Assembly: GCA_039799905.1 (NCBI GenBank)
Contig: JBDLRP010000019.1
Span: forward strand, 32,001-96,000
Reading direction: 5' to 3'
Length of the DNA stretch: 64,000 bases
Source: Pseudomonadota bacterium
Lineage (GTDB): Bacteria > Bdellovibrionota_B > Oligoflexia > Silvanigrellales > Silvanigrellaceae
Each line of letters starts with the position of its first letter. Position 1 is the stretch's first letter. Both the position numbers and the translations under genes were made by a program. A model generated the notes under the pieces. The model was not told the origin of the DNA. It was given only the letters and a program-made list of their open reading frames with translations, and did not search any database. This document shows, piece after piece, positions 8,262 to 64,000 of the stretch.

Positions 8262-8271
8262 GGAGTGGACG

Positions 8272-10649: not shown

Positions 10650-10662
10650 GGTGACCCTGCAA

Positions 10663-11970: not shown

Positions 11971-11985
11971 CAAAGGAAGAGAATT

Positions 11986-20310: not shown

Positions 20311-20380
20311 ACCCGCTTGAATTACGCGCCAAAACTAATTGAAATTTCACTGCCGCGGGGCGGAACAGAGTGCATCGGTC

Positions 20381-24024: not shown

Positions 24025-24025
24025 A

Positions 24026-48900: not shown

Positions 48901-51900
48901 GTTTACCGTGGGGCAATTCACATCCAAGCGATTTCCGAGTGGACAATTCACCAGCGGTGCAGTGGCAGTCGCCGAAGGCGCTGTGTTGCTTGCAGCAAGC
49001 CGCACATGACTTGTCGCTTCGGGCAACACGCTGAAGACGAAATTTCGGCTCAATCCGCAGGCATCCACCGTCAGAGTGACGGCCTGCGTTGCTTTGTAGA
49101 GTTGGAAGGTTAGATTTGTAAACTGTCCGGGACTCGCCGCTGTGAACAGACGAGAGTTGTTTGCGTTGAGAGCGCGGGTCGTAAAGTTTGCTGGGATTCC
49201 GTTGAAGGGAATATTTGGATTGACCGAGTCACATGCCTCATTGTTGCACGCCGGCGGCAGTGTCGATGCTGCTGCAGTGATCGTGAGCGTAGTGCACGCC
49301 GCGCGGTTGCCGGCGTTGTCGAAAACATCCACTGAGCTCAATATCACATCACCGCCGGCCGTCGGAGATTGAGTGTTGAAGTTACCGACGACAATATCGG
49401 TTGCAACACCTGTCGAAACGCGGATTCCCCCAATCACCTTGCTGACATTACGTGTGGTGATTGTGAACGAAGTGTCAGTTGCCGGAGTTGTCGGGAAAGT
49501 CATGTCGAGATCAATTGCGCTTGAGTTGACCCCATTTGCCGCATGATTCACGGTTAGATTTGTCGGCAGAGGATTACTTCCGCCTTGATAGTTGGTTCCC
49601 AAGCCAGAAGCATTCAGAGTGTATTCTTCGCTGCGCTGACGATTGACGGCCTGCAGCTGTCCGCCGCGCCACTGCAAAAGAGCGAGATTGGTAATTGTCA
49701 GCGTTGAACCGGCCGTGATAGCGTTTCTGGTCGCAGGATTGGTGATGGGGTTTGTCGTTACGGTTGTGCCGTCGAAACTGCCCAAATCACCAATGCCGCC
49801 AAATAGCTCAACGGTTCTGACAATTGCATTGCCTGAAGTTGTGTTTGTTCCAGCAAGCGTGCAGGTCAAATCACGATTTATGAAGCTTGCATTGGTGACT
49901 GTTGCAGTTGTGTCGGTCACCGGTACTCCGGCAGGGGTGCCAGATGCTGCAATCGCAGCAGTTTCTCCCGATGGAATCTTTTGCGCTGCAGTCCAATCGC
50001 AGTTACCCGAGTTTCTGCGCCAGCGGTTGCCGTATTCATCCCACATGAATGCAAAAATAGTCGGGCAGGCAATGTTTGCGTTCAATCCGTCGACCGGCAT
50101 ACATTCCTGAGGAGTTGTCAAAGAAGTCGATGGCTCAACAGATGAATTGCTGAGCTGAACCTCATTGGCCTTGAAGTTTTCAATCACGCTGACTACCACG
50201 GCTGCCGATTGCACTCCGCAGCCCTCAAAAAAGATGCTGTTCTCGCTTGCTTGGAAAAAGGTCATGGCCTTTTGAAAAACGCCTATTGATGCAGTTGTGT
50301 TCAACGGGTCTCCGGCACTTGCATTGCTGATGGCATTTGTGACCGAACCGTTGTGTCCACCAGGTGAGGCGAGGTTTGAGCCATCGGTTGCCTTGACAAC
50401 CGGAGGCGTCGCACAGCCGTTTGCTGAGAGATTTCCAAACGCATCGGTTGCGACCACGCGAAGAGTTGTGACAACGCCTGCAACCTGAGCCGGAATATTG
50501 TCGGGAGTGAGGGTGCTGACAGCCGCCGGTACAACATCGTAGCCAGCGGCGTTCGCACCTTTGCGCAGTCCGCTGTTGTTGTCCGTAACAAGCAGTTCAC
50601 CAACTTCAAAGCGTTGCGACTTGCGCAGGACAATTCCATTCTGCACTCCAATTCCGTTGGTGAATGCAAAAGTAGTCGTGAGGGTCGGTGCGCTTGCTCC
50701 GGAACCTTGTACTCCCGAAATTGTGTAGCTTTGAGCCTGCAATGCGGAGTCGAGCGTCGTTCCTGTCGTTACTAGGTTGCCGGCAACGTCGAGGGGTTCA
50801 AGTTTCAGACTGATGGCAGTTCCGGCTGTTGTGTTCGGCCAGGTGTTTGCATCGTTGTTGTCGAGTTTCAACCTGTAGGAGGCGACGGTTTCAATTTGCG
50901 GAAGGTAAACCACATCCACACTGGGCTCGACGCTCACACCGGCCGGCACACCTGTGACTTTCCACTTCACTTTTTGCCCGACCCTGTAAAATAAATCCTT
51001 AAACTCGAATCCGACGCCCGCTTTGAAGGCCGTGTTGATTGCCGGATCCGCCGGCTCAAGATTCAATGCCGCAGCATTAAAAGTAGCATCGGTAGAGCTG
51101 ACGGCTTGGGTTGTGGTCAGAGTGTTGTCGACCGCTTCGGCAGTAAGTGACACGCCGGTATCGCCGGCACGCAGATTGCCGAACGCGTCTAAAGGTTGCA
51201 CTACAATCCTAAAGAGACCATCCGAGGAGCGCGCGTTGCGGTTGCTGTTGTTTGCAAGACTGGTGAGTCCCGTTTGGGAATTGTCTGTCGCAAGAAGACG
51301 ATACTTGTTCAACGTAGCCGGCAACACCCGCAGAGTGTTCCCTGCTGCGGGATGAATTGTAACGGCTTTGCTTTGCGTCGCATTGTTTATGCTGAGTGTG
51401 TCGCGATAGTTGTTGCGTGCTTCAAAGAAGGTGACTTTCACAAGTGCAACACCGTCGATGAATGTGCCGTGGGTGGCACTGTTAAATTTGACCGTTGTAT
51501 TGGTTTGCCCGCTAATCTGCGTGGGTTGTCGTGCAGTGCCATCGGCACCGGTGAGCGATCCGATTCCAGCCCAAGTATAGTCGTCATTGCGGAGAATGTT
51601 GTCGATTCCACGCACCGGATTGCCGTAGTTGTCGACTGCCTCAAAGCGAAGAGTTGTTTCGCTGCCCGCGAATACATCTGTGACTCCCGCGGGAATGGCA
51701 AGACGGAAATCAGCGACCGAAAACAAACCTGCTTCGAAATTGATGAGTGGCGCTGCGGCGATGGTGCTCATGCCGGCATCCGAAGGTCCGAATGCAACCA
51801 CACGGAACTGACCCGGTTCGTCATAGAAGAGATTTGGATAATTGATAAATGTGTTAGTAGCGCCGAACACACCCGTCGTGCCACCCGTCAACACACCACT

Positions 51901-54900
51901 GGGTGCTGACGTCCCGTCTTCGCGGACAATCTTAATTCCGATCACGTCGCTCACGTTTGGAGGCGCAACTTTGTTTCCGAACTGGTCGCGTGCCTCAACA
52001 CGGACCGAGAAATTGCCGCCACTGCCGGATTTGTCAGCGCGGGCTTCAACTGATGTACGATTGGGAATGACACCGTAGTGGTGAAATGCTGCTGGGTTCA
52101 CTTTCAGACCAAACGTTCCGGCGAATTCGGAAGTCGATGCTCCAATAGTCAGGTTTGCACGAACTTCGATTTTACCTGTCGTTGCACCAGTAGCGCCAAA
52201 GTAACGAACCTCATAAATCTTATCGGTGGCAGCGCTCGCCGGGTCTTTGCAGACGCCACCGACCATTTTACAGGTGTTGGGCTGACTGAACGGTGTCGGA
52301 CAGTTTGCGTCCGGACAGCCCGGCAATTGTGCCCGACCGCCCTCGCTTCGGACTGGATAGTCTCCAAAGTCCCAACTCAGCTCAACACCATCCTGTGCGA
52401 TTGTCTCTGCGACGTTGTTCTGCGCGTCGACTGCTTGAATCTTGAAAAAGGCACTTTGATTTGGCAGCAACGGCGGGTTTGTGCTTGTCGTCAGGTTCGG
52501 GTCGTCTCCTGTTCCCGGCATAGCCGTACCGTCGGATTGCACGCGTACGAGACGCAGTTTTGTCGGAGATGCTGCAACGATTCGAACTGGATAATCGACG
52601 GTTGTAGCACCATTGCTGGTCAGTGTCGCACGAAGTGTACCTGTGCCTGCTTGCAAGAGCGGAAGCAATCCGGCGAAGGGCAAACTCGGGTGTTGCTGCG
52701 GGGGGAGCAGCGTGAACCCGGATGCATAGGAGAAGACTGATTGCGGGCTGTCGGTGCTGTTTCCGGCTGCATCGAGCGAGCGAACCTCGACCTGCTGGAA
52801 GTCGTTAGTCGTTGTAAAAATATTGTCTGAGTCGGTTGAAAACGCGCGGTCTTTGTTTGCACCGCTAATATCGGAGAAGAAGATCTGATTGGTGACAGGA
52901 GCGCCTGCAAGGACAGTGAATGTAAGGTCACGCTGTACGGTGGTTGCCGCTCCTGCACCGACAAAGTCTCCCCGCGGTGCGAATGTTGTTCGGATGGTGG
53001 CATTGCCTGTTGCCCTAAGGAGGCGGAAAATATTCGCAGTTGTCGTGCTCGTTGCCGTCACAAAATCGAGCGTCACACTCGTCGGCTTGAGTTGATTGGT
53101 CGTTGAGCCGTTGGGGGCGCCCAATGCGGCGTCGTTCAGGTATGTAAACGCTGCTGTGGGATGGTAACCGGTTCCGTCTTTTGGCAACGATTCTGGCTCT
53201 GTTTCGTTGCCGAACTCATCGAGCAGCTTCACGATGATTCCAAATGCGTCGTCTGTCTTTGGCGAAGTGTTGCGGTTGAGCGCGACGCTGAAGTCAGCAG
53301 CCAGACCCGCTTTGACAGGAAGAGTCAGAAAGGTGTTTACAGGTGTAAATCCTGTCGGAATTCCACTTACCGGCGGACTCCAAGTGGCGGTGAGGTTGCC
53401 TTTTTGGTGTAGGTTTTCGAGCGTCAGGTTTGCTTTTGTCTCGTCACAGGGAGTTCCACCTCCGAAGCAGGTGTTGATTCCCTGTCCCAGAATGTTCGTA
53501 CCTGCAGGCGCACTGACGCTGATCCACTTGCCTACGGGTGCGGGTGTGGAATCAATGAAGTTGCCAACTTTATCGGTCCAGAAACCTCGGATTGCATTGG
53601 CCGTGCTGCTAACCTGCAAGCTTCGGCATGTGGGTACGGCACCGGTGATGACCTTGAAGGCCTCGACGTCGAGAATGTTTGTATAGACCTGAAAGCCAGT
53701 GACAGCGAAGGGCTGCCGGCAGACCTGCTCATCGTCAACATTGCGGTAATCAACTGCAGCTGCAGTATTTGTCCCAATTGTCAGTGGTTGTTCAACTGTT
53801 GTGTCGCCATCGAGTTGAGGTTCTCCGGCAGGAACAATTGAGGCGAAAAACTTGGGACTTCTGCCCGAGTCCATGAGACACACAAAGCGGTCGCGAAGGT
53901 CCAGAACTCCGCCGTTGACAATCCGAGTGCTGCGTTCGCTACCAAAATATTTGATGCTTTTTGAGTCCATCGCTGTCGTGGAGTTAAAAAAGGAATTTGC
54001 GGCGTCTGTCACAGGACTTTGCACGTGCGAAGTGTCGAGTTGCGTTTGTGGAATAAACTGTCCGTCGCTGTTTTGGCGGTACAATCCACCGGGTTGAATC
54101 AACTGTTTTTTCCGCCCTGCCTGAAGCGCGTCAGTGTAGTAATCCGTCAGCCAGAAATCGGCATTCACAGCTTTTGAAAAAGTGTGCACAAGGTTGTTGT
54201 CGGTGTCGCGGACCGTTACGATTGGCGACAAACAAGTTCCAGCGGGTATGACATCGTTTGCAGAACGTTCGACAGGGGCCGAAGTCGTGTCGCTGATTGG
54301 GATTGCATTGGCCAGCCTAACGCGCAGCTTGCTCGGTGTACCGGGTGAAACGACAAGCTTGAACTCTTGCTTAAGCGTGCCTTGAGCCGCCGAAACCAAC
54401 ACAGTTTTATTACTTTCCTGGTCGGTGGCCTTGTTCGCGGCAAACGTGAATTTTTTGTGTGCCACACTGCAGCCTGTGCCAACAGTGCCGGAGAGCGATT
54501 GCGATGTAATCGTGTTCCCGTTGGCACCCGCAATTTCAGTGTTCGTGAGAGAGTTTTTGACCGTGAGTGTTGCGGACAAAGCTTCGCCTTTGTAGTTTCC
54601 GAAGGAATCTGTGATTGCTGGAAAAAGGTTGACCGATTCATCCGCCGTCAGCTTGAATGCTTCCAATGTTTTGTCAAACGGAACTTGTTCGAATTCAGTT
54701 GCCGCCGCAGTGCGCTTCTGCCTGAGGAACCAGGCGACAGCGTCGCCGTTCGCCACTCCTCCGCAGTCACTGGCCAGAACGAGTTCATCGCTGCCAGTGT
54801 TGGGGAGAGGTTTTGCACTCGCAATCACGACACCGTCAATCGTTGAATTCGGGGTCAGGTCGAACATAAAGAAATCGTGCGCACGTGTGGTATCCAACAT

Positions 54901-57900
54901 ACTGAAACGAGCATCAGTTCGAGTGTCTTCGTCCACACCGTCGGGTTTGCTCGCAACTTCGTTGGGTGCGGTTTGATTTACGTTTCGCAGGATACATTCA
55001 GACCCTGCCAGATTTTCGCCGTCTATAAAGGTCGTCGTATATCGCGGTTTCGAGTCCGACGAATTCGTTGGGTCGCGCATTTCTGCGCCTTCGACACGAC
55101 GAAACACACAGATGAATTCGGTCTCTTTGTTTTTGCTGATGTTGTTGGCTTCAAAGAGCGGCAATTCTGTAGGCTTGCCCCATGTTGTCAGCGCTGGATG
55201 CACAAATCGGATTTGCTTTCTGCCGTTATAAGTCTCGATGGGTGTTCCGAATTCGTCAACTGCACGTAGCCGGACGGCAAATTCCATTCCCGCCAGCAAC
55301 TGCGGATTCGTCGGTCCTCCGTCCGAACTGCTCCAGAAAACCGTGGGATTTTCGGAGTCAGGAGAAATGAAGTCGACCTCGAACTTGCGAGCAACTTCAG
55401 AAACAAAGTCGAAAAAGGTCGACTTCACTGTCACACTCGTGTTGTCTTTCAGGGTGGCTGTCACAAAACCGCCACCGCTGTCCAGCTCGGGTCCGTCTGT
55501 GTCGTCCGCACCCTGTTTCTCTGGTGAAACCTCGATGTCGATCACAGAGTTTCCGGCAGCCGACAAATTTTGAATTGTATCCTCAATTTCGTACTGTTGT
55601 ATGCTGCCGATGACGGGTGCGACGTTTGTCCACGTAAAGGTGGCAAGAACGTTGCCCGCATAGTTTTTGAACTCGTCATATCCCGCTACGAACAACTTTT
55701 TTGATTTGCCTTTTGTGATGGCGACGTGACAGCCGTCAATCTCTGGCTTTCCATCACATGTGCCGCTAACAGACAAATCTGCACCATCATTGCTGTCACC
55801 AAGTTCGCCGTTTGCTGCACCACGCAGTTTTATGGAGTTCACAGTTGAGGGATTGATCTGAATCAATGCCTGAACTACCTTTGTTGGAAACCCAGCGAAC
55901 GTTGACTCAACCTTTATCTGCATAACGCATGGAGTCTGATCACCAACTCCTTGAGTCGCACGATTTATTTTCAAGGTCTGTCCAGGGAATTCAAGCAGAC
56001 CGCTTGTAATCTTGCCAGGAGTGTTGAAATCGTCTTTGAATGTTGCAGCATTGAAGGAATCACCGGTAGCATTTTTTGTGTGGCAGCCGTTGCTGAGAAT
56101 ACTTACAGCAGAGTCGCTCGGTGTGGTTGTGAATGCTTTTGCGACTCTGTATGTTTCATTGCTCAACGTAGTCTTGGTATCCAATTGTGTTTCAACTCGA
56201 GCACCACTTGCGTCTCGGACAACTGCACTGACAGGAAAATCGACTCCGGCCGTGATTGTGCTGGGTACTTCGACGGTCAGTGAACTCGGATCTCCTGAAA
56301 CGGCGACATAGTTATACTTGATGAAGATGTTATTTTCTGTGGCGGTAAATCCCATCGCAGTTTTTTCTTCCGGACTGAGGTCAGTTGAAACTGCCTTGGC
56401 CGTGATTTTTCCTGTTCCGGGTTTGTTGACCAACACTGGTGAAAAATCCGTTGCGCTGACTCCCGGAGTCAACGTCAGGTTGGGTGTCCCGCTTAGGCCA
56501 TCAGGTGTGTCAGTCCATTCCACCTTGACATCACGCAGCCAGTTGCCGGCAACGTCGACAAGTCCAAGCCTCAGCTTGTCTGTCGCTAATCCGAACTTGA
56601 AGACGAGACACGGGTCGCCGAATTCCTCGCGTGTGTCGCGTGTACAGACATTTTTGGAGTCGTTGCCGACGTTGCTTGGGTCATTGGCATCCATCACCAT
56701 CAGGCGGTTCGGCTGGTTTTTTGCAATGTCCAGCTCCAGGGCGCCCTGAAATTCAACCTGATTGAGTTCGCTCTTCCCGACGACTTTGATAGTTGGTTTT
56801 TCCGTTGCACCAGCTGGTCTGGTCGCATCATAGAAGCATGCCTTTTCAACGGAGCGCGCAAGACCTTCTGAGAAATTAATCTTCCGGTCGACGATGGTCT
56901 GTGTGAGGTTCACGACGTCGCCCCAGTGCGCACTCTTTGCAAGTACGGGAGCAGTGTCAGTCGACTCCATCGTCAGGGTGAGCGTATGTTCACCCTTGAT
57001 GTTCGGATTGATGTTGCCAAAGTTGTCACTTGCAAAGATGTCGACGTCGACGCAAGTACCGGCCTTGATTGGGGCGATTCCCACGTCCTGACCGTTGATG
57101 CGAAATGCCCATTTGGTTTGGTCGGCTGCTGGCACCGTCACAACAATCGGTGCGATGAGTCCTTTGTTTTCCGCCGAGACTGAGAGTAAACCAGTACCAG
57201 ATTTGGACGGACTGAAGTTGATTAAATTTCCGAATGCGGGACCATCACTCACATTGTTGAGCTTTGGTGTCAGTCCGGACAGAAGACGGTCCGAATCTAT
57301 ATTCCACGTCGCTTCTGCAACCTCTTCGAGGTAGTTGCCGTTCGCGTCGATCCATGCGCCCGTGTACTGTGCGTTTGCACCCGCTGGAAGTGTGATTGAA
57401 GTAATCGGTTTCGAATCGGCAGGCGGCGGTCCTTGGAAATTTTTGACTGCAATGAACGCCCGTTCGCCATCTGCTGTCGCCTCAATATCTCCTTCAATGG
57501 GATTGACGAGATTGTCCGAAAAAGACAGCCGATACTTAACCTTCTCGGGAACCCTCAGGCGAAAAGGTCCGCGCGGAACAAGACACCGACCACCGCTGAA
57601 CTGACAATCGATTTCACCGTTAGGAAATTCGGGTGTGAATCCCGCCCATGACGTTGAAGGAGAGGCTTCGATTTTGAGTTTTCTGAAGCCTTCGAATGTT
57701 GAGGCGACACGCCCTTCGGTGTCGACGATTGTGATTGTCATGTCGAATTCTGTACCAACTTTCTCTTTGTTTCTGTTGGCTGTCTCAAGAACCAGCCGAG
57801 AGCCTTCCTTCAGGTCGGAGGTGCTCAGCAGCGCGAATGAATAGGACGCATTGTCTTCCGGACCTGCTTGCGCCAGAACCGCGATTTTCTTGTTGAAGAG

Positions 57901-58410
57901 AGCCGGCGCAATCACCCAAACCTTGGCTTTGCCTTCTTTGTTGGTGCGCGTATCGAATTGGTCGATACGTCCAACCCGCTCTTCAATGTCGACTTCCGGT
58001 GCCGCCGCTCCCGAGATGGTGTTCTTCTTTGCCGCAATTGCCGCCGTGCGTATGGCTGCGTTCGAAGACGTCAGCGCTGCAGCTTCGTTTTTCCATGCCT
58101 CGACAATTTTTTCGGTGCTGACGTTTTCGGTGCCACCCAAAAGTGATTCTTCAACCAGCCTGAATTCAATAACGCCCTCGATGACAGGCTGGCCGTTGGG
58201 ATCCTTAACTGTTACCTCGACGGGATTCGGAAAGGGGCGTTTAGGCAGAGAAACCTGCTGTGATCCAGCCAAGACGTCGACCTTCCACCCTAGTGGAGGC
58301 ACCTGTTTGACTCCATCTGAACATGAGAGGGTGAAAATGAGCAGGAGCAGCGCCGCCATCAGATGCACGGCGCCGAGATTTTTCCAGTGATTTTGGAAAC
58401 ATCTCAACAT
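39907..58410 (-). CDS. Giant 6167-aa surface lipoprotein/adhesin with tandem Ig-like repeats
   Basis: Lipobox IFTLSC (Cys30); Big_1/invasin-like first domain (PVEVTVKDPNGQPV); dozens of DxxGN turns; T/A/S/N/G-rich; nine Cys-patterned repeats in the C-terminal half. Confidence 0.88.
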   Translation of the reverse strand: MLRCFQNHWKNLGAVHLMAALLLLIFTLSCSDGVKQVPPLGWKVDVLAGSQQVSLPKRPFPNPVEVTVKDPNGQPVIEGVIEFRLVEESLLGGTENVSTEKIVEAWKNEAAALTSSNAAIRTAAIAAKKNTISGAAAPEVDIEERVGRIDQFDTRTNKEGKAKVWVIAPALFNKKIAVLAQAGPEDNASYSFALLSTSDLKEGSRLVLETANRNKEKVGTEFDMTITIVDTEGRVASTFEGFRKLKIEASPSTSWAGFTPEFPNGEIDCQFSGGRCLVPRGPFRLRVPEKVKYRLSFSDNLVNPIEGDIEATADGERAFIAVKNFQGPPPADSKPITSITLPAGANAQYTGAWIDANGNYLEEVAEATWNIDSDRLLSGLTPKLNNVSDGPAFGNLINFSPSKSGTGLLSVSAENKGLIAPIVVTVPAADQTKWAFRINGQDVGIAPIKAGTCVDVDIFASDNFGNINPNIKGEHTLTLTMESTDTAPVLAKSAHWGDVVNLTQTIVDRKINFSEGLARSVEKACFYDATRPAGATEKPTIKVVGKSELNQVEFQGALELDIAKNQPNRLMVMDANDPSNVGNDSKNVCTRDTREEFGDPCLVFKFGLATDKLRLGLVDVAGNWLRDVKVEWTDTPDGLSGTPNLTLTPGVSATDFSPVLVNKPGTGKITAKAVSTDLSPEEKTAMGFTATENNIFIKYNYVAVSGDPSSLTVEVPSTITAGVDFPVSAVVRDASGARVETQLDTKTTLSNETYRVAKAFTTTPSDSAVSILSNGCHTKNATGDSFNAATFKDDFNTPGKITSGLLEFPGQTLKINRATQGVGDQTPCVMQIKVESTFAGFPTKVVQALIQINPSTVNSIKLRGAANGELGDSNDGADLSVSGTCDGKPEIDGCHVAITKGKSKKLFVAGYDEFKNYAGNVLATFTWTNVAPVIGSIQQYEIEDTIQNLSAAGNSVIDIEVSPEKQGADDTDGPELDSGGGFVTATLKDNTSVTVKSTFFDFVSEVARKFEVDFISPDSENPTVFWSSSDGGPTNPQLLAGMEFAVRLRAVDEFGTPIETYNGRKQIRFVHPALTTWGKPTELPLFEANNISKNKETEFICVFRRVEGAEMRDPTNSSDSKPRYTTTFIDGENLAGSECILRNVNQTAPNEVASKPDGVDEDTRTDARFSMLDTTRAHDFFMFDLTPNSTIDGVVIASAKPLPNTGSDELVLASDCGGVANGDAVAWFLRQKRTAAATEFEQVPFDKTLEAFKLTADESVNLFPAITDSFGNYKGEALSATLTVKNSLTNTEIAGANGNTITSQSLSGTVGTGCSVAHKKFTFAANKATDQESNKTVLVSAAQGTLKQEFKLVVSPGTPSKLRVRLANAIPISDTTSAPVERSANDVIPAGTCLSPIVTVRDTDNNLVHTFSKAVNADFWLTDYYTDALQAGRKKQLIQPGGLYRQNSDGQFIPQTQLDTSHVQSPVTDAANSFFNSTTAMDSKSIKYFGSERSTRIVNGGVLDLRDRFVCLMDSGRSPKFFASIVPAGEPQLDGDTTVEQPLTIGTNTAAAVDYRNVDDEQVCRQPFAVTGFQVYTNILDVEAFKVITGAVPTCRSLQVSSTANAIRGFWTDKVGNFIDSTPAPVGKWISVSAPAGTNILGQGINTCFGGGTPCDETKANLTLENLHQKGNLTATWSPPVSGIPTGFTPVNTFLTLPVKAGLAADFSVALNRNTSPKTDDAFGIIVKLLDEFGNETEPESLPKDGTGYHPTAAFTYLNDAALGAPNGSTTNQLKPTSVTLDFVTATSTTTANIFRLLRATGNATIRTTFAPRGDFVGAGAATTVQRDLTFTVLAGAPVTNQIFFSDISGANKDRAFSTDSDNIFTTTNDFQQVEVRSLDAAGNSTDSPQSVFSYASGFTLLPPQQHPSLPFAGLLPLLQAGTGTLRATLTSNGATTVDYPVRIVAASPTKLRLVRVQSDGTAMPGTGDDPNLTTSTNPPLLPNQSAFFKIQAVDAQNNVAETIAQDGVELSWDFGDYPVRSEGGRAQLPGCPDANCPTPFSQPNTCKMVGGVCKDPASAATDKIYEVRYFGATGATTGKIEVRANLTIGASTSEFAGTFGLKVNPAAFHHYGVIPNRTSVEARADKSGSGGNFSVRVEARDQFGNKVAPPNVSDVIGIKIVREDGTSAPSGVLTGGTTGVFGATNTFINYPNLFYDEPGQFRVVAFGPSDAGMSTIAAAPLINFEAGLFSVADFRLAIPAGVTDVFAGSETTLRFEAVDNYGNPVRGIDNILRNDDYTWAGIGSLTGADGTARQPTQISGQTNTTVKFNSATHGTFIDGVALVKVTFFEARNNYRDTLSINNATQSKAVTIHPAAGNTLRVLPATLNKYRLLATDNSQTGLTSLANNSNRNARSSDGLFRIVVQPLDAFGNLRAGDTGVSLTAEAVDNTLTTTQAVSSTDATFNAAALNLEPADPAINTAFKAGVGFEFKDLFYRVGQKVKWKVTGVPAGVSVEPSVDVVYLPQIETVASYRLKLDNNDANTWPNTTAGTAISLKLEPLDVAGNLVTTGTTLDSALQAQSYTISGVQGSGASAPTLTTTFAFTNGIGVQNGIVLRKSQRFEVGELLVTDNNSGLRKGANAAGYDVVPAAVSTLTPDNIPAQVAGVVTTLRVVATDAFGNLSANGCATPPVVKATDGSNLASPGGHNGSVTNAISNASAGDPLNTTASIGVFQKAMTFFQASENSIFFEGCGVQSAAVVVSVIENFKANEVQLSNSSVEPSTSLTTPQECMPVDGLNANIACPTIFAFMWDEYGNRWRRNSGNCDWTAAQKIPSGETAAIAASGTPAGVPVTDTTATVTNASFINRDLTCTLAGTNTTSGNAIVRTVELFGGIGDLGSFDGTTVTTNPITNPATRNAITAGSTLTITNLALLQWRGGQLQAVNRQRSEEYTLNASGLGTNYQGGSNPLPTNLTVNHAANGVNSSAIDLDMTFPTTPATDTSFTITTRNVSKVIGGIRVSTGVATDIVVGNFNTQSPTAGGDVILSSVDVFDNAGNRAACTTLTITAAASTLPPACNNEACDSVNPNIPFNGIPANFTTRALNANNSRLFTAASPGQFTNLTFQLYKATQAVTLTVDACGLSRNFVFSVLPEATSHVRLAASNTAPSATATAPLVNCPLGNRLDVNCPTVNAFFWDQFGNVNPAGTCTSWSFDKASGSTSKTDGDGFTLAATGTSQSIKTPDTIGSFLSGRLACVSTGGSKGIALMSGGLTSLTATHTFGGTAAATSKTAAANNLTVNDIQARMKKVALSDTSNIDSSLVESEVNKDDIGGLGAQNLVLGSTSGSSGASLTDATLPMVASTTVSCTFNASGACALNANLSLRRAETNRVITVSYRDVTAALPALTVTPAGAHQISPFLWRTIDTDRITVANPMLASDNVGANIRVVDEFGNPTDFINGSNSTACTAAADDITVVGGTLDNTNSTLTTADRLFQNTALGHWVIESTPGTSTGLNVRKAGDHTLRYKMCGLTADLTIRVQPAVLNEIRLHTSAAAPAASLTSLNCPLNATGTGATCQFVNAFFFDAHGNQRIGDTCDHWQFDLRDAPAYNASIPAGTYTVPTPFTAENTNAEANTASVRVNHSNFIDGTLKCTRGAFNRTLPMHGGIAFMNVSHTTGNLTALNGNFSITSVQLHGPAGDNTAVILPQVLTNETIELSSNATRANDPDANAVIPSAAVTCNFSQNSKAECTTAMSASFTKVETARNLTVKVRGLTYTTPNFNVVANNADSITARVYTGADPTTEANQRSVATPLVAGESFRATVNAVDQFSNDTSGNCNAAAMTITSSVNLNDPLGGASQLTGGGVAFAADAGFTGRFSVNNNMNIKKATTTTLTFTACGRTTTRDIKIVPAAHSYTRVSTAEAAPAANTAAATLKQRCPLAASGAGVTCEPLNAFMYDVFGNLREGDTCTTWTYAATTGTTHSGTLFESDGNKVTRSSTGGARTTRITSTDWMDGTVTCANGAITHSIQFFGGITKLDVTHTSTAAVTAGSAFALNSVQLTGPTYTADVFSMAALPDNLNAEPVSLQTTAVKASAGNPAEVVKPAWTCNFVAGVCDGDPAPSIADALNLNFSKAQDGITFSVFVRGKVFSPAVFNVAPTTASRIAARVWTTANTDANLKNETTPLSAGDAFGATINAFDQFDNRTAVGCVATQAGMTIASSANLNAPVDSAASTLIDADHIFAAKAGTIGEFEVEDLLIRKATTTDLTFTACGRTTVYKLRIVPKAERAFARVTTGNAAPSGNTSNDILRERCALAGSGSGVVCNTLNAFIYDSFGNVRDGQNCTSWTYTKTGGTTPTSNEAAATLTNTGTTSSTRLTSSDWIDGRVKCVVDNDDDKSHSIHFFGGIESLAMAHSSTTNVVAGAAFSLTSLTLKGPSYDNSGVLTFPAIEEDLNQESVTLQTTAQKAVTGNPNEVVNPAWTCNFVDGVCTSGTSPNPTTALSLHFTRKETGVSFTAFVRGKSINSGNFNVNPANASATTTTFKLVNVAGDAIIDSNPSINQTNADRQADQTFNLHIDLLDQFGNKTDKRADNGNTCATTNSSTIAQTTVLANGNNDNATKFTGPALNSFDATALVYKLTDMKLTGPGANTLTINTCGVSHLLNLNISAGAAHKFFLNKSTTASKTNVDEDKCSLLSGGGTSCDTIRAWFFDQFGNHRAGDTCDSWALTNLAVSSPALTVPALDNQPSPSISVSANSALDARLTCVKAGGATEEGTVGVVLFGGVQSVDATLPASGNITAGTSNFAVSGLQLKGRKNNTVINAEYAGTLPISFSTTASAGLDGTLFTSTPATDCNFSATGACATTFNFSFVRADATARALTINVHGVSNITGANANVRNNIIVAEGNPTKVISRTVPDTVAADATISGTFNLTDAFDNPSCSEDLTISATQLTDLFDNHKSAIGTAPTIHGTTLTAANKGTAISVADTSKGTYALNSTALRNANSTGLTLTFAAPAACGNFSFTHTIKTTNGVFSDFKFLNSNIVDDATVQSTTQPAKINCKHTAESGSGVTCDSIYAYFRDNQGNLLNNVQNNSCKWIYTPIGTSNGPAAASLPLGRSITLTHSKFLDGNLQCQRTVNGVAQTGASNLSTAIPVQGGISRVALELRGTSTTAINGILSAASNPVVAGNDNVGIRKISLFTRQNNTEVDVSTDATIRDDYDFATEPIEFVTTAQKAMFGTPNNVVPNTPSCTFADGKCDNSAVSLLSGIAANQKLSLTRSGASGSNDVAVRIRGITSNTLSMIVNSANAASLVVTAPTSLQNAGSELKTLVSVRGFDTFGNDSLRSCTGFTAGALPTSPAGDTSVFTFGSFDAATNVTIPIDSLIIKAAGNHSIPVTANGCGLSVQIPLTVQSNTTLGRIVISSETTAPNFSAANGEVACATLNGGNDGVSCPDLFSYHYDAFGNKLASAASTHTCDWKVGGTLEGANAGVQTRTRASDSTTPHINELISCQKTVGSDTFTSNSIRLFGGPHTLSIASAPATTTLVAGFGNFQISKLTLQSQKDTSLVPMPGLNATAQTVTFSTSGQPNLVCADPDLPTNSCIHTGSVSCTFSTSGECSPNALFNFKKVHNTDRTLTASVRGKSASVTITSVSAGPAAKLVIGGLTGGTVDALYPTATSSIATTITAKDEFDNGTTTPKSGGNCSTVNVTGNDQGAYADNIAITNTNSNPSNAALKIYKAGTHNLTFSKCGVSVTEDLTITAGAVRRTLLTTDDVQPSVFNCVSAGDNIQTTRECSFTRTCAANAAGTAAGTGCGALFAWHYDKAGNFIAAGTNTKSCGAGGASATFTNVDTGVTVAAATTGSSGSAVFAASGNGFAVTAPANKYLRGDVSCKPDSASHLGGSVVQITAPVTLTAPTVECTPWMYTSTRAAESLCQFKNETGVTLSSAEAFTPAQTLDSTEAHPELIHKPSMTADILNNNFAQFIVEGVAGKMTSKFKLRFTSSNNKVLVADSPVLRVPLRKSDSITAPVTTAPQETAADAGANLTKAEQAEDTTVPTVATDRRIFYYTHGGFTWADCATGKCETAKASVETLDTTFTTFPLLADPSVPANDTFIKPRRYNAHPMQNAFFFVTTTSTNTDRCMNKTNVSDNSSCKIDVEIDHTKGKNLRGVWWLKDSAGNPYYFMTPDDPD
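40700..50700 (-). repeat. Nine diverged ~1.13-kb (~375-aa) intragenic repeat units (bounds approximate)
   Basis: Anchor motif C-x4-[AS]-[FWY]-xx-D-xx-GN near 50050, 48900, 47740, 46610, 45490, 44360, 43250, 42110 and 41020. Confidence 0.85.
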
Positions 58411-58498: not shown

Positions 58499-59089
58499 TC
58501 AAAGGTAAAGAAGTGCACCAAATCGGGGTCTTAGCAATAGACCTGAGAAGTCTGCGACGCTTGTGCCCACGGCAATGGAGGCATCAACGTTGACGTCCAG
58601 CGCCACATTGCCGAACAACTTATAGTGGGTCCCCATTCCAACACCGACCGAAAAGTAATTCGCGCTCACTTCGGCGAGTTTCACTGCACCAAACGTATCA
58701 ATGAGGTAGCGCCCCCAGCCAACCTTGGCGTGCAGGTAGGGTTTGACTGATGACGAGTATCGCAAGGTGCTGGAATCGTGCAGGTCCTCAAAATCAGTTC
58801 CATATTGGAATGGGTAGTATTGTATGCCACCCCGGGTCTCCATGATTTGGGTGAGATTGGCATTTGCAGACTTTCCAGCTTGAAATTCGACAACTGCTGC
58901 CAGAATTCTCGACCTGAACGAAAGCCACCTGATGTCGACATTTTGCACGTTCAGATCTTGTCCGGCTCTGTACCCGCTGATTGAGGAAACAATGGCTCCT
59001 GTCGAGATTCCCAAGGCGGACACGACTTCGGCGTGCGCCATTTGTGGTAACAGAAAAAGCGGGAGAAGTGTCAGAAGTCTTCTCATCAC
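58499..59089 (-). CDS. Small outer-membrane beta-barrel protein (~8 strands)
   Basis: Signal peptide (AHA-E); KPYLHAKVGWG, VGVGMGTHY and C-terminal PRFGALLYL; 4-bp overlap with the upstream gene. Confidence 0.75.
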   Translation of the reverse strand: MMRRLLTLLPLFLLPQMAHAEVVSALGISTGAIVSSISGYRAGQDLNVQNVDIRWLSFRSRILAAVVEFQAGKSANANLTQIMETRGGIQYYPFQYGTDFEDLHDSSTLRYSSSVKPYLHAKVGWGRYLIDTFGAVKLAEVSANYFSVGVGMGTHYKLFGNVALDVNVDASIAVGTSVADFSGLLLRPRFGALLYL

Positions 59090-59703
59090 TTTTTGCCCCG
59101 CGCTTTTCCTTTTCCGCCGGCGGGAGCATCGGGGCTTGCGCCGGTTTCGGCCAGCAGTGCGCGAATTTCTGTATCCGACGGGTCGAGTGCGAGCGCCTTG
59201 TAGAACGCCTCGCGGGCCTTTTCGGCCTGATTTTGCAACATGTAAACAGTTCCTTCGAAAGTATACGCTGCTGCAATGTTTGGGTTTGCCGCTCGTGATT
59301 TTTCGAGTGACTTCAGCGCTTCCTTAAAGTTCTTATCGATGATCTGCCGCTCAGCTTCCAGTAGAAACCGCACTGCGGTGTTGATGTCCGCAGAGTCGTC
59401 GGAACCTATGGGAAGCATATTTGCTTCGATTTCAAGTTTTCCGCCACCCAGATTAGGAATGACGAAGTTTTGATTGCGGTATCCGGCTCTCTTCAGAGTC
59501 AAAACGATTGTGCTCTTGTTAGAGAACTTGCTGAGTTCAGCCATCTCCTGCTGCAACGGTGTCTTGCCCAGCAATTTTCCGTTCTCTTGTCCTGGGACGG
59601 ACATTATCACATCCACTCCGGGAGGTTTGCTGGTGATGCTGACGCTCGCGCAACCAGCAAAGAGTGGAAGCGCAAGACAAAGAGCGGAGAGTCTCAGTTG
59701 CAT
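59086..59703 (-). CDS. PEGA-like + TPR lipoprotein
   Basis: LFAGC lipobox; ITSKPPGVDV...LGKTP...LKRAGY (PEGA-like); TPR helices (AAAYTFEGTVY, AFYKALALDP). Confidence 0.85.
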   Translation of the reverse strand: MQLRLSALCLALPLFAGCASVSITSKPPGVDVIMSVPGQENGKLLGKTPLQQEMAELSKFSNKSTIVLTLKRAGYRNQNFVIPNLGGGKLEIEANMLPIGSDDSADINTAVRFLLEAERQIIDKNFKEALKSLEKSRAANPNIAAAYTFEGTVYMLQNQAEKAREAFYKALALDPSDTEIRALLAETGASPDAPAGGKGKARGKK

Positions 59704-59927: not shown

Positions 59928-62201
59928 ATGAAGCGCTTGAATTTTAAAAATTCAACATACATTGTCGGGTTGCGCCGCGCGTTGGTGCAGTCGCTGGTGT
60001 CTGCGCGGCGTGGTCTTCTTTACTGTTTGCTTTTTTTGACACTGCTCTTGGGCGGAATATGGCCACACTCGCTTTTGGCACAGACAAGTGGTCGCGCAAC
60101 ACTGACGCAGACTCTTGATGCAAAGGTTGCCGAGGCTGAGCAGTTCCTTGAAGAACGTCTCAACAAGCGGTTGGAAGCCGTCACGGATCCGCCTTTCCTG
60201 ACAACTGTCCGAGTCGATTTTCCCGTGACAAAGCTCAATTCGCTGCGACAGTCGGCGGGTGGTAACGTGTCGAAACTCTCGCGCGGTGCTTTGTCAAAAG
60301 GGATCAGCAACGACGACGCGCTCATCAGCCTGCTCAATGCACTGACACCGCTGGAAATCCTCTCCAACGCGCAACGGGTTACAGTTGTTGTCACGTTGGA
60401 CCAAACCTTTCCCAAGGATTCGGTTGCCGATCTCAAAACAACCCTGCAGTCGTACCTGCGTCTGAATTCGAAGCGCGGCGACAAGCTCGACATCAATCAG
60501 AAGGACCTCACAGCCGGCCGTTCGAAGTCGAAGGTGGAGAGGGCCGAAAAGGAAAGTCAGCAATACAAGAGCCAGATTGACAATCTGCAGCGAGAGCTTG
60601 AGGCCATCCGCCGGCGCGAGGGTGATGCACAGCGCGACGTGACCGAAGCACGTCGTAAAGAGCAGGACGCGCAGGCTCAATTGCGCGAGGCACAGCGTGC
60701 GACCGAAGATGCCAAGCAAAAGCAGCGCGAGGAGCAGGACAAAGCAGCAAAGGCGGAGGAAGAACGGCGCAAGCTTTCCGTTGAAATCGACGATCTTAAA
60801 AAGCAGATCACCGAGCTCACTGAAAAGAATAAAGACATTGCTGAAGAGGCAAAAACGCCGATCGGGAGGTTCAAAAAGCTTGTCGCAGGTCTCGAATTGC
60901 CGTTGACGGTTGTACCGGCGGTGCTTATCGGGCTGATAGGAATTCTGGTGATCGTTTTGATTCAAACCTCGCGCGTCAAGTCGGCTAGCACCGACATGAC
61001 ACAGACAATGATCCAGGTTTCAGCAGCTGTGGCAAAAATCGGCGAATCGATTGTTCAGGCCGCCAAGGTACAGGGCAAGCAACAGGGCGATGCAATCAAT
61101 GTATCCGCAGGCGGAGCTGCAGCCCTTCAACAGAACATGCAATCATCCAACGATTCCACCTCCGAGGAGCTCATCGCTCTTGAGAAGGAAGCACAAAGCC
61201 TTCTCGCAGATATGAATCAAAGCCGGTATCCGATGCTCAGTATTCTTAAAGACTGGCTTGCAGACAAGCGCGAGCGCACCAAGTTTGCAGGATTCTCGGA
61301 GGCTGTCGGGCCCAACGCCGCGCGCGAAATCTTCAAAGTCTTTCCCAAGGAAGAGGTCGAGGCTCTTGGCAACGCATTGTATGAGCCACTGGCAAAGGCA
61401 CAGGCTTATAAGGTGGTTCTCCAGCTCTACCGGCTCGCCGGACGCGAAATCAGCCGCAAGCCGAGTTACTTTACAAATCTCGACCTCACATACCTCATTG
61501 GTGCCACCGACATCGAACTCAGCAACGCGTTGTCCGAAGCCGGCACTGTCGAGGCCGCGCGGTTGATGGTTCTGCTCACACCCGAGCGTTGTGCGCGCAT
61601 CATTCCGGGCATCCGTAATCACGACAGCATGGAATTGCTCGAGGCGATGCGGGAGTCGACCGGGATGAGCGAGGACGATGCCAAGGCTGCACTTGCCGAC
61701 GTCAAGGGCAGAATGAACAACGACCGCGGCGGTGACTCCAAGTTCGACGTCACCAACCACCTCATGCTCATGCTCGATGCTCCCAATCCGGAGTTCAGAA
61801 CGGCGGTCAGCCGTGTTCTGCGCGCCGACAAGCAGCTCTCGCAGCAAGTGGGCTCGCGCGTTGTCACCATCGAGGAGGTTCTCCGCTTGGATGATGAAAC
61901 ACTTGCCGAGCTGCTCGCTGAACTCGAGCCTGCCGATGTTGCGACTCTGCTTGTGTCATTGCCAGAGGAGTTGAATGATCGCATCAATCAGTTCTTCACT
62001 TCAAACAAGATCCAGGCCGCCATCCGTCAGGAGCTCGACAAGTTCGAGCGCTCAAAGATGGCACGAAAGCGTGCGGAATTCGAAGGTCAAAAGATACAGG
62101 CTGCACTCATCCGTCAAGTCAAGGACATGCGCGAGCAGGGCCTGATTGAAATGGCGGATGATGGCGAGTCCGGCGGTGAAGAAGAGGCGGAGGCATCCTG
62201 A
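59928..62201 (+). CDS. FliF(RBM3)-coiled coil-TM-FliG fusion protein
   Basis: Signal-like N-terminus; RBM3-like EQFLEERLNKRL...VRVDF / RVTVVVTLD...LNSKRGDKLDI; coiled coil aa ~199-309; one TM; FliF-tail-like ILKDWL; FliG N/M/C-like segments (VGPNAAREIFKVF, LDDETLAELL, IQAALIRQVKDMREQGLI). Confidence 0.78.
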   Translation: MKRLNFKNSTYIVGLRRALVQSLVSARRGLLYCLLFLTLLLGGIWPHSLLAQTSGRATLTQTLDAKVAEAEQFLEERLNKRLEAVTDPPFLTTVRVDFPVTKLNSLRQSAGGNVSKLSRGALSKGISNDDALISLLNALTPLEILSNAQRVTVVVTLDQTFPKDSVADLKTTLQSYLRLNSKRGDKLDINQKDLTAGRSKSKVERAEKESQQYKSQIDNLQRELEAIRRREGDAQRDVTEARRKEQDAQAQLREAQRATEDAKQKQREEQDKAAKAEEERRKLSVEIDDLKKQITELTEKNKDIAEEAKTPIGRFKKLVAGLELPLTVVPAVLIGLIGILVIVLIQTSRVKSASTDMTQTMIQVSAAVAKIGESIVQAAKVQGKQQGDAINVSAGGAAALQQNMQSSNDSTSEELIALEKEAQSLLADMNQSRYPMLSILKDWLADKRERTKFAGFSEAVGPNAAREIFKVFPKEEVEALGNALYEPLAKAQAYKVVLQLYRLAGREISRKPSYFTNLDLTYLIGATDIELSNALSEAGTVEAARLMVLLTPERCARIIPGIRNHDSMELLEAMRESTGMSEDDAKAALADVKGRMNNDRGGDSKFDVTNHLMLMLDAPNPEFRTAVSRVLRADKQLSQQVGSRVVTIEEVLRLDDETLAELLAELEPADVATLLVSLPEELNDRINQFFTSNKIQAAIRQELDKFERSKMARKRAEFEGQKIQAALIRQVKDMREQGLIEMADDGESGGEEEAEAS

Positions 62202-62240: not shown

Positions 62241-63035
62241 ATGAATTCAACCGTCATAGGTTTCATTCTCGCGTGGGTGTTTTGTTTTTACATCATTCAG
62301 CACTCCGTCAAGGACCTGAAGGTGTTCAACGACATTCCCGGATTTTTGTTGATCGTCGGTTGCACCGTGGCGATGTCGCTTATGGCCAACACATTAGAAG
62401 AAAATAAAAGAATTTTTAAAGCCATGACAGATGGCTTCAAGCGGCGGGTCGACAAAAAACAGGAAATTGTCACCGAGATTGTCACCGTTGCCAAAGTTAC
62501 CAACGGTGATACGCGTATGCTGGAACAACAATTGGGCAGCATTCAGCAGCCGTTCTTCAAAGAAGGCGTCGGTCTCATTTTGGACCGCTTCAAGCCCGAT
62601 CAAATTGAATCGATCATGTCTGACCGTATCGAAAGTCACAAACAATACCTTCACAAAAAAACACATGGCCTGAAAGCTTTGGCTAAGTATCCTCCGGCAT
62701 TCGGAATCATTGCCTGTGTGGTGTCGCTGATTGCGGTGATGCAGCGTCTGGGCGGCGAGCTCAAAGCAGGCGATCTAGGGCCGTCCATGGCGGTCGGGTT
62801 GGTGGGAACACTGATCGGACTGCTGGCAGCAAACTTCATCATCATGCCCTTGGGCGAGAACTCGGAGCATCGAGATAAAATCGAACTCAAGGAACGTGAA
62901 ATTATTTTGCAGGGTGTGTTGATGCTCGCAAACAAGGAAACACCGCTCTTTGTGCAAGAAAAACTCAACTCCTATCTGAAGGAAGACAAACGAGTGGATG
63001 TGCTGGGAGTCGGCGGGGGTGGAAAAGCGGCATAA
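62241..63035 (+). CDS. motA: MotA/PomA-family stator A subunit
   Basis: 264 aa, four TMs; LLIVGCT, PFFKEGVGL, YPPAFGII, MAVGLVGTLIGLLAANFIIMPLG, IILQGVL...P...EKL. Confidence 0.92.
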   Translation: MNSTVIGFILAWVFCFYIIQHSVKDLKVFNDIPGFLLIVGCTVAMSLMANTLEENKRIFKAMTDGFKRRVDKKQEIVTEIVTVAKVTNGDTRMLEQQLGSIQQPFFKEGVGLILDRFKPDQIESIMSDRIESHKQYLHKKTHGLKALAKYPPAFGIIACVVSLIAVMQRLGGELKAGDLGPSMAVGLVGTLIGLLAANFIIMPLGENSEHRDKIELKEREIILQGVLMLANKETPLFVQEKLNSYLKEDKRVDVLGVGGGGKAA

Positions 63036-63053: not shown

Positions 63054-64000
63054 TTGGCGCGCGGCTTGTTCGATAACTCAAGAGATCCATCTTCGCCCGC
63101 AGACAGCGCGGCGGGGAAAACTCTTGACAAAAAAAAGCTGCCGCAGATGCCTCTTCCAAAAAGAAAGAGCAGTTCTGAAGACGAGGGCGGCGGTGGCGGC
63201 GGTCATGAAAGTGATGACACACTCTGGCTCTACAGCTTCAACGACATGCTTTTCAATTTGCTGCTTTTTTTTATCGTGATGTACTCAATTTCACAAGTCG
63301 ACGAAAAGAAATTTGCGGAAGTTCAGCAGGCACTTCAAGGCGATAAAAAGCCGGCGCTGCTCAAAGACGATGACAAGGAAGGCGTTGTGGTCGGTCCACG
63401 CAACGGCGCGCTCGATGCCAAGCAGCTTGCCTCATCCGGTGGTGAGGCAGGCGGTGACAAAAGCGCCGAAATTGCCGCTGCAATCCGCTTTATGCTCGAG
63501 CGTTCGGAAAAATCAAAAGTCAAACTTGCCAAGGGTGCGGGCAAGGAAGATGAAAAGAAGGAAGAGAAAAACAACAAAAAGAGCAAATATATTTCGGGAA
63601 CCAATATCCCGCTTCCGATGAAACTTGTTTTTCCCCACACCGAATTTTTTCAAAAAGGCACTGCCGATTTGAGCCCCGAGGGGGCTGAGAATCTCTCGCG
63701 CCTCGCAGAAGAAATTAAAGCAGTCGAGAAGCTCGGCCGCGCAGATATCGAGGTGCATACCGAATTTTCCCGCGATATGATTGCTAATCTTAAAGGGCAG
63801 TCGCAGCTCAGTACACTCAAAATCGCGACACTGCGCGCCGGTGTGATGTTCGAGTATTTTGTCAAAGGAGGAGTTCCGCACAAGAAGGTGGTGAGCGCCG
63901 GTTATGCCGACGGACGCCCTATTGTTCTCGGTGAGAATCTGACCCCACAGCAGCGCGCTGATTTTTCAGCCAGCAACGATCGTGTCATTGTTAGTCTGTT
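63054..64000 (+). CDS. motB: MotB-family stator B subunit (3' end runs off window)
   Basis: Not in the ORF track; TTG 63054 after GAGGTGA (alternative ATG 63147). WLYSFNDMLFNLLLFFIVMYSISQVDEKKF (TM Asp plus plug), then an OmpA-like domain FFQKGTADL...IEVHTE...LRA...GYADGRP...NDRV. Confidence 0.9.
   Translation, partial: MARGLFDNSRDPSSPADSAAGKTLDKKKLPQMPLPKRKSSSEDEGGGGGGHESDDTLWLYSFNDMLFNLLLFFIVMYSISQVDEKKFAEVQQALQGDKKPALLKDDDKEGVVVGPRNGALDAKQLASSGGEAGGDKSAEIAAAIRFMLERSEKSKVKLAKGAGKEDEKKEEKNNKKSKYISGTNIPLPMKLVFPHTEFFQKGTADLSPEGAENLSRLAEEIKAVEKLGRADIEVHTEFSRDMIANLKGQSQLSTLKIATLRAGVMFEYFVKGGVPHKKVVSAGYADGRPIVLGENLTPQQRADFSASNDRVIVSL

Follow-up and report, generated by a model that had tools for sequence, protein, structure and literature searches.

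In the flagellum, the RBM2 domain of FliF houses the export gate. The rotor protein FliG binds FliM through its EHPQ motif and contacts MotA through residues R281 and D289 (PMC6680979), and artificial FliF-FliG fusions, among them Salmonella fusions cited in two studies (PMC4768692; PMC6680979) and one from Vibrio, show fused rotors to be capable of assembly and rotation. A natural FliF-FliG fusion has been described in the Chlamydiaceae (Bergeron, 2016; PMC4768692) as an injectisome-linked protein of ~330 amino acids (aa) with two transmembrane (TM) helices and only the M domain of FliG; it keeps RBM2, lacks an RBM3-like, FliF-specific domain and has no stator. Ion-driven envelope motors outside the flagellum include ExbBD-TonB, TolQRA, AglRQS of Myxococcus and GldLM of the Bacteroidota (PMC12505986; PMC13104615). 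Here we describe a natural FliF-FliG fusion gene, together with adjoining motA and motB genes and a recurrent set of partner genes (hereafter, the cassette), on contig JBDLRP010000019.1 of a Silvanigrellaceae genome (assembly GCA_039799905.1), within a stretch of 64,000 nucleotides (positions 32,001 to 96,000 of the contig) that is referred to as the window. Judged from sequence and modelled structure, the cassette appears to be a conserved rotor-stator set, composed of flagellar parts and apparently undescribed, with a predicted function in the cell envelope.

The locus shares with the flagellar motor core (FliF, FliG, and MotA5B2 or PomA5B2) the RBM3 fold, the N, M, and C domains of FliG with equivalents of R281 and D289, a four-TM MotA and a MotB with plug, aspartate and OmpA domain. 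Unlike that core, its rotor component is a single polypeptide in which a likely signal peptide replaces the first TM helix, RBM1 and RBM2 are missing, the β-collar is replaced, the linker between RBM3 and the membrane is much longer, EHPQ is lost and MFxF is changed, and export gate, rod, FliM/FliN and filament genes give way in its vicinity to outer-membrane and signalling partners. Like the Chlamydiaceae protein, it unites portions of FliF and of FliG in a single natural membrane protein. It differs in retaining only RBM3 of FliF, the reverse of the Chlamydiaceae case, in having every FliG domain, torque helix included, and in being encoded beside a stator of its own. The artificial fusions of Salmonella and Vibrio (PDB 8z4d) are likewise fused rotors, but they are engineered or mutant and act inside a complete flagellum with FliM/FliN. 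The predicted function recalls the ExbBD-TonB, TolQRA, AglRQS, and GldLM systems, in which an ion-driven inner-membrane motor is coupled to outer-membrane parts and, in gliding, to surface adhesins; descriptions of these systems, however, include neither a FliG-type rotor nor an RBM3 ring, and the stator found here scores as flagellar type. Since the cassette falls outside the flagellum, the Chlamydia fusion and the TonB, Tol, and Agl systems on these features, it is treated here as a putative system apart.

No description of the cassette was found in the literature covered, which did not extend to the supplementary stator tables of two studies (PMC12505986; PMC11323537) or to most subscription journals. 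In a recent survey of stators, those of flagellar type are grouped as a flagellar clade, and the sections covered here name no FliG-fused partner (PMC12505986); the accessible parts of the Bdellovibrio stator papers treat all motAB pairs as flagellar (PMC11323537; bioRxiv 10.1101/2025.02.19.638989).

Domain architecture of the fusion protein

The fusion gene (59928..62201, + strand) encodes 757 aa that read, from the N terminus, signal peptide, RBM3, stalk, TM helix, and FliG N, M, and C domains. Its open reading frame has the same coordinates as in the original prediction, made from the sequence alone, and the natural FliF-FliG fusion proposed there was confirmed by profile and structure comparisons that place FliF RBM3 and FliG N, M, and C in one protein. 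An AlphaFold2 model (mean predicted local distance difference test score 79.5, from a 41-row alignment) shows an α/β domain up to residue 192, a single helix at 196–305, a TM helix that runs on to 383 and helical domains beyond it. With this model as query, Foldseek returned full-length FliG on top and FliF RBM3 chains next, and Pfam searches across 41 members of the fusion family matched FliG_C in 35, FliG_N in 11, FliG_M in 5, and YscJ_FliF_C in 3. Matches to MgtE_N were taken to reflect a fold common with FliG, and the identification of the fusion as a magnesium transporter was rejected. A search over 5.8 billion proteins, with 8000 candidates scored, recovered 19 relatives at 69–97% identity, one of them labelled Silvanigrellaceae, and an exhaustive search of 50%-representatives returned 54 matches. 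Against three orthologs from the genus, the gene shows 318–335 silent codon changes and 114–134 residue-changing ones (~2.5 to 1). In one metatranscriptome, five short contigs match the barrel and lipoprotein genes of the cassette, the 5′ end of the fusion and motA at 99% or more, a thin signal that may be of DNA origin.

Residues 1–51 (59928..60080, +) have the hydrophobic stretch and conserved cleavage-type site of a likely cleaved signal peptide, with cleavage before Q52. Among the 69 aligned relatives on which all residue counts out of 69 are based, A51 is kept in 49 and Q52 in 48, in agreement with the signal-like segment first read there. The RBM3-type ring-building domain of FliF that follows (aa 56–195; 60093..60512, +) is identified by profile-profile comparison with FliF RBM3 (hhalign 92.7%, E 4.4e-7), by a PDB profile search that matches the region to 9yh6 FliF (E 0.002), and by the superposition of model residues 56–195 on FliF RBM3 (VIA-align Z 14.0, root-mean-square deviation (rmsd) 1.4 Å over 96 aligned residues), with the same residues scoring lower on the EscJ and PrgK domains (Z 8.3 and 8.2); the RBM fold proposed for the N-terminal domain was thus recovered. 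The SctJ-homology region, RBM1 and RBM2, gave no profile match in the fusion (hhalign 0.25% and 0.14%), and there is, as predicted, no room for it, residues 52–195 of the model being wholly occupied by RBM3 and 196–305 by one helix. The position of the β-collar is taken by an insert of 51 aa (aa 99–149; 60222..60374, +), matching the ~50 aa estimated at the outset, and measures 33–58 aa in most of the 69 relatives, against 95 aa in 31/31 FliF proteins of the Oligoflexia. In the model the insert consists of short helices and disorder, and no β-collar is formed.

The stalk (aa 196–305; 60513..60842, +) agrees with the ~110-aa coiled coil that had been predicted ahead of the membrane: it is modelled as one helix with a heptad pattern, in which the best register places hydrophobic residues at 23/32 a/d positions and the other six registers at 2–15, the d positions are rich in alanine and half of the residues are charged. 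The predicted length of ~16 nm stands as an upper bound, reached if the helix is straight, and the long helix is present here but is not a family-wide feature: the linker from RBM3 to the TM helix measures 131 aa in the fusion, against 22 aa in FliF, and ranges over 20–190 aa (median 103) in the subfamily. A conserved amphipathic motif (aa 310–323; 60855..60896, +), with G321 and E323 as the most conserved positions, precedes a single TM helix (aa 324–345; 60897..60962, +), which hydropathy, peaking at 327–345, places where it had been proposed. The two TM helices of FliF are not present, their place being taken by one TM helix and a signal-type N terminus for which cleavage is likely. With a cleaved signal peptide and one TM helix, RBM3 and the stalk would be periplasmic and the FliG domains cytoplasmic. 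The proposal that the coiled coil is not cytoplasmic holds insofar as stalk and RBM3 lie on the same side of the TM helix; that this side is the periplasm follows from the predicted topology.

Two modelled helices (aa 412–445; 61161..61262, +) lie where FliF carries its C-terminal tail, the helices of which co-fold with FliG N, and they precede the FliG N-like domain; W443 is kept in 38/69 relatives. The FliF-tail likeness claimed for SLLADMNQSRYPMLSILKDWL received no support as homology: profile-profile comparison reached only 0.3–2.6%, and in a hidden Markov model test of 32 FliF proteins, 22 of which were scored, none had its best match within the final 25 aa, so that the region is only consistent with a counterpart of the tail. 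The FliG-like domains predicted for the C terminus, on the other hand, are well supported, with profile-profile values of 99.2% over 290 columns for N, M, and C together, 98% for M and C, and 93.9% for N alone, and with structure matches to N and C. The N-like domain (aa 447–510; 61266..61457, +) covers the first 60 residues of FliG N and superimposes on 5tdy_B over residues 448–510 with a middling Z of 7.5 (rmsd 2.2); a Pfam FliG_N match at aa 539–599 was discarded as a cross-match to the M domain. The M-like domain (aa 515–600; 61470..61727, +) is followed by the C-like domain (aa 603–742; 61734..62153, +), which scores above the Pfam FliG_C cut-off and gives a structure match over residues 645–740 (Z 11.1).

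Alignment to E. coli FliG reproduced each of the motif correspondences proposed earlier. AGTV (61539–61550) stands in place of EHPQ, VVTI (61860–61871) in place of MFxF (MFLF in E. coli), and SNKIQAAIRQELD (62004–62051, +) corresponds to the torque helix, with K694 equivalent to R281, Q701 to D288, and E702 to D289. EHPQ is present in 0/69 fusion relatives against 27/27 canonical FliG proteins. The first F of the MFxF hinge is found in 2/69, and VVTI retains the hydrophobic pattern. Position 694 is K/R in 56/69 relatives and position 702 is D/E in 58/69, both being charged together in 50/69; across columns 655–739, only two positions reach 50/69 for K/R and two for D/E, and 694 and 702 are among them. 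The absence of EHPQ and the joint persistence of the torque charges therefore indicate that the switch-binding face has been lost and that the stator-facing charges are among the best kept of the domain. A non-switching rotor is not established by the loss of EHPQ, because this loss takes away only the known route to FliM. Low identity to FliG and the loss of known motifs could also be read as the decay of a duplicated flagellar locus, but this explanation is largely refuted and very improbable, the fusion being intact in many genomes of two orders, with a conserved gene set and a purifying pattern of codon changes.

Stator and partner genes

Directly 3′ of the fusion lie motA (62241..63035, +; 264 aa) and motB (63054..64000, +; 321 aa, ending 19 bases beyond the window). 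MotA is of the flagellar (PomA/MotP-like) type, with NCBIfam values of 3.7e-32 for PomA against 0.0026 for TolQ, below the equivalog cut-offs, and has the channel residues and four TM helices with a loop of ~100 aa; MotB has a plug, an OmpA-type wall-binding domain and the D32 equivalent. The stator features of a four-TM A subunit with a large cytoplasmic domain and of a B subunit with aspartate, plug and wall-binding domain are hence present, and the pair lacks the characters of ExbB/TolQ-type A and ExbD/TolR-type B subunits. MotA P173, T209, and P222 are kept in 26/26 cassettes and MotB D32 in 22/23 (one truncated). In a tree of MotA sequences, the reference rows sit on long branches and the deep forks are without resolution. 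The equivalents of MotA E98 and rotor R281 have been lost jointly in one clade of three loci, as a single event; these three are among four loci (L078, L079, L080, L082) whose cassettes carry two tandem TPR/PEGA lipoproteins.

Divergent from the fusion is a gene for a lipoprotein with PEGA-like and TPR domains (59086..59703, −; likely start 59703), identified by an invariant cysteine in 31/31 aligned members and by Pfam TPR matches, with PEGA matched in 3/31. The same strand carries a gene for a small outer-membrane β-barrel-like protein of 196 aa (58499..59089, −), recognized through its family profile and a Pfam OMP_b-brl match below cut-off (E 0.003), and, directly downstream of it, a gene for a giant repeat lipoprotein of 6167 aa (39907..58410, −). 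The latter contains 106 cysteines and 27 D-x-x-G-N motifs, mostly 120–250 residues apart, and has no match in Pfam, PDB or self-BLAST. Its N-terminal part is matched in 9 of 12 relatives within the genus, where the giant lipoprotein is likely part of the system. Genes of at least 900 aa follow the barrel gene at 6/22 and 4/19 loci (overlapping sets of related genomes), against 90 of 2606 host genes, and most of them start with a lipobox-like cysteine. This list of partners suggests the handling of a large surface lipoprotein.

Outer-membrane partners of this kind would also suit a TonB- or TolA-like transducer without a ring, in which a few copies of the fusion engage one MotA5B2 and rotation pulls the stalk and the outer-membrane complex. 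The TPR lipoprotein and small barrel fit such a transducer, as do the replacement of the β-collar by helices, the long and highly charged single helix with its alanine-rich d positions and the partial loss of charge pairs between rotor and stator. Nevertheless, it is an unlikely explanation, since RBM3 is kept at 1.4 Å from a ring-forming fold, the full set of three FliG domains, known to polymerise in the flagellum (PMC6680979), has been retained, and the stator is of flagellar rather than ExbB/TolQ type.

Beyond the end of the window lie a FecR-like gene and a gene for a PP2C phosphatase that contains HAMP and SpoIIE domains as well as the motifs expected of it; the two genes together point to signalling. 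The FecR-like label derives from a Pfam FecR match in one member (E 0.0004) and from Atlas leads under 0.9, with no Pfam FecR match in 16 aligned members of the family and no PDB match. The two genes raise the possibility that the system is mainly a sensor, in which rotor and stator probe load or surface contact, a FecR-like and HAMP-PP2C relay reports to the cytoplasm, and movement is the means and not the output. Such a sensor is compatible with a dedicated envelope motor and is conceivable, if on balance improbable. FecR-like and PP2C genes recur at 19 and 18 loci among 25 with motA, and at 28 and 30 among the best 80 of 246 loci picked by MotA; both are kept in Bdellovibrio sp. HCB185ZH, the phosphatase has its domains and motifs in order, and the FecR-like gene is single-copy in the host. 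The identity of FecR is, however, indirect, two paralogous operons of the host have no FecR-like or PP2C genes adjoining, and the linkage of PP2C could partly be chance, given 13 PP2C-profile matches in the host.

Distribution and proposed function

Thirty-six loci chosen from the hit list were fetched, of which 33 carry a fusion of more than 600 aa and three a 330-aa FliG-like gene. Several of the 33 end at contig edges and related genomes are counted among them; as related genomes are not independent, the cassette counts describe and do not test. The 33 fusion loci have motA in 25 cases, motB in 23, the TPR lipoprotein in 28, the barrel in 22, the FecR-like gene in 19, and PP2C in 18. In the reverse view, where 246 loci were selected by cassette-type MotA alone, the 80 best contain a fusion-like gene in 48 cases and the TPR gene in 47, besides PP2C in 30 and FecR-like in 28, with a second profile iterated on the MotA-picked loci and some of these repeating the first set. 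Partner genes recur beside the fusion across the Oligoflexia and the Bdellovibrionales, and the Bdellovibrionales members, which have the same partner genes, align end to end at 99.8%. In a search of 131 genomes of the phylum, 11 of the 12 other genomes of the genus match the fusion below 1e-100, and most of the 120 matching genomes do so through canonical FliG only.

Two cultured carriers of the cassette are available. In Oligoflexus tunisiensis Shr3, for which non-motility and a lack of observed flagella are reported (PMC4179278), the fusion faces a single block that comprises the TPR and barrel genes, three large genes, motA, motB, PP2C, and FecR-like, with motA 17 kb away, and in Bdellovibrio sp. 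HCB185ZH all seven cassette genes lie together. According to a 2026 review, the gliding machinery of Bdellovibrio is unidentified (PMC13104615); the cassette was considered as a general gliding motor of this genus and rejected, because the Bdellovibrio-type fusion occurs in only 9/44 of its genomes.

The host has a separate flagellum, with canonical fliG (contig C39), fliF (C21), motAB (C45), flhA, fliM and eight flagellin-domain matches, and no export gate, switch, rod or filament gene adjoins the cassette there. Most carriers are flagellated, and one study cites a title reporting three motAB pairs for the one flagellum of Bdellovibrio bacteriovorus (PMC11323537), so that the cassette might be conceived as auxiliary to the flagellum of the cell: an additional set of stator genes would come with a scaffold or decoy resembling a rotor, which would store stators or tune them. 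We consider this quite unlikely, as the fusion has neither a FliM site nor RBM1/RBM2, flagellar genes are absent from its surroundings in the host, and one genome (G045; 96% complete, 70 contigs) carries the full set of seven cassette genes, and searches there for FliF, FliG_N, FlhA, flagellin, and FliM gave no match. Two further candidates for flagellum-free carriers without FliF (G019 and G016) proved to be flagellated and were rejected.

Because torque-generating parts have been kept, export and switching parts are gone, and the set persists in a genome without flagellar genes, the cassette is probably a dedicated rotor-stator machine of the envelope. This reading starts from what the locus itself shows: the domain content of the fusion, with neither RBM1/RBM2 nor EHPQ, and a linked flagellar-type stator with intact channel residues. 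By analogy with the flagellar motor, copies of the fusion would polymerise into a ring through RBM3 and FliG M–C contacts, and MotA5B2 units anchored to the wall by MotB would push on the torque helix of FliG C at K694 and E702. The one-piece rotor without type III secretion system housing that had been put forward therefore stands as a one-piece RBM3-FliG protein lacking RBM1/RBM2 and EHPQ, and its action as a rotor stands as an analogy. In the absence of a FliM site, the ring would turn outside CheY control, probably in one direction. Least certain are the last steps, in which the stalk and RBM3 ring might transmit torque or tension to a complex of TPR lipoprotein and small barrel at the outer membrane, this complex might handle the large surface lipoprotein, and the state of the motor might be reported or regulated by the FecR-like protein and the HAMP-PP2C phosphatase. 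For the whole chain, a dedicated, ion-driven, non-flagellar rotary motor of the envelope with an output at the outer membrane, the evidence tilts in favour only slightly, if at all.

Several observations weigh against this interpretation. On the side of the rotor, the equivalent of FliG D288 is Q in the fusion and D/E in 30/69 relatives, and ring formation cannot be taken as given because the β-collar is replaced in the model. On the side of the stator, the position of MotA R90 holds N here and R/K in just 17/26 cassettes, and that of E98, which is kept here, holds E/D in just 16/26. At 8/33 fusion loci no motA is found in the stretch fetched, some of these being truncated, and most loci have no large gene after the barrel. 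Flagellum-free carriers are represented by a single tested genome, G045, which has N in place of R281 and L in place of R90. Lastly, Bdellovibrionales-type members are without a long stalk, their linker measuring only 16–38 aa in 22/25. The drive shaft of the original prediction, a ring lifted toward the cell wall or outer membrane, is accordingly weakened: it would be possible in the present lineage, as a lineage-specific trait that the family does not require.

If the predicted rotation does take place, neither export gate nor switch nor filament is needed for a FliG ring to function with MotAB, and both a minimal torque-generating unit of three proteins and the existence of rotor and stator outside the flagellum become testable. 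A bolder reading, which we hold to be doubtful, is that of a second kind of bacterial rotary motor, in which a single self-assembling rotor protein would work with dedicated MotAB, stalks of up to 16 nm would raise an open ring of RBM3 domains toward the outer membrane, and the TPR lipoprotein and small barrel would couple the ring to the 6167-aa surface lipoprotein, driving surface movement or adhesin deployment while the phosphatase reads the load. Were this so, no simpler natural pair of rotor and stator would be known, and the motor might account for the unexplained surface motility in part of the Bdellovibrionota.

Related loci and other features of the window

Two further operons of the host resemble the cassette. 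The second operon (G000:C29:99813-105805; L235) consists of a barrel-like gene, a TPR lipoprotein gene, motA, motB, and a gene for an 848-aa membrane protein with clear FliG_M and FliG_C domains and two periplasmic repeats containing CPxxC; a single-protein query with this paralog, run with no positive control, matched 0/44 Bdellovibrio genomes. The third (G000:C46:81468-87510; L236) has motA, motB, a TPR lipoprotein gene and a gene for a 604-aa membrane protein with a weak FliG-like signal. The host also encodes an orphan FliG paralog of 318 aa downstream of a priA-like gene (G000:C19:117561-118517; L002), with N, M, and C domains and no EHPQ, and second FliG_N matches are seen in many genomes of the class.

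The 330-aa FliG_C-like proteins (L070:8631-9623, L071:8475-9467, and L072:8510-9511) have no TM helix and come from three near-complete genomes (G047–G049) that gave no match to FliF or FliG_N and have no motAB near these genes. A conserved four-gene operon is found in G045 and in the same three genomes (L240:5734-12383, L241, L242, and L243:2761-9606), comprising a gene for 350–365 aa, motA, motB, and a gene for a superfamily-1 helicase-like protein of 1390–1444 aa (AAA_11/AAA_12). The layout of this operon presumably recalls that of the Zorya defence systems.

Within the window, the profile of G+C content revealed no genomic island, and a scan of the region for promoters and terminators remained at chance level. 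The gene at 36285–37205 (−) encodes a lipoprotein that combines a coiled coil with an OmpA/MotB-like domain at the C terminus, and has no linked motA. From the reading of their sequences, genes at 7173–13068 (+) are labelled as encoding barrel-like proteins, a lipoprotein, a CxxCH-containing protein and a twin-arginine DUF1501-like protein, and those at 20339–27087 (−) as a sugar-use cluster with alpha-mannosidase-like, glycoside-hydrolase-like and AGE epimerase-like proteins and a sodium:solute symporter.

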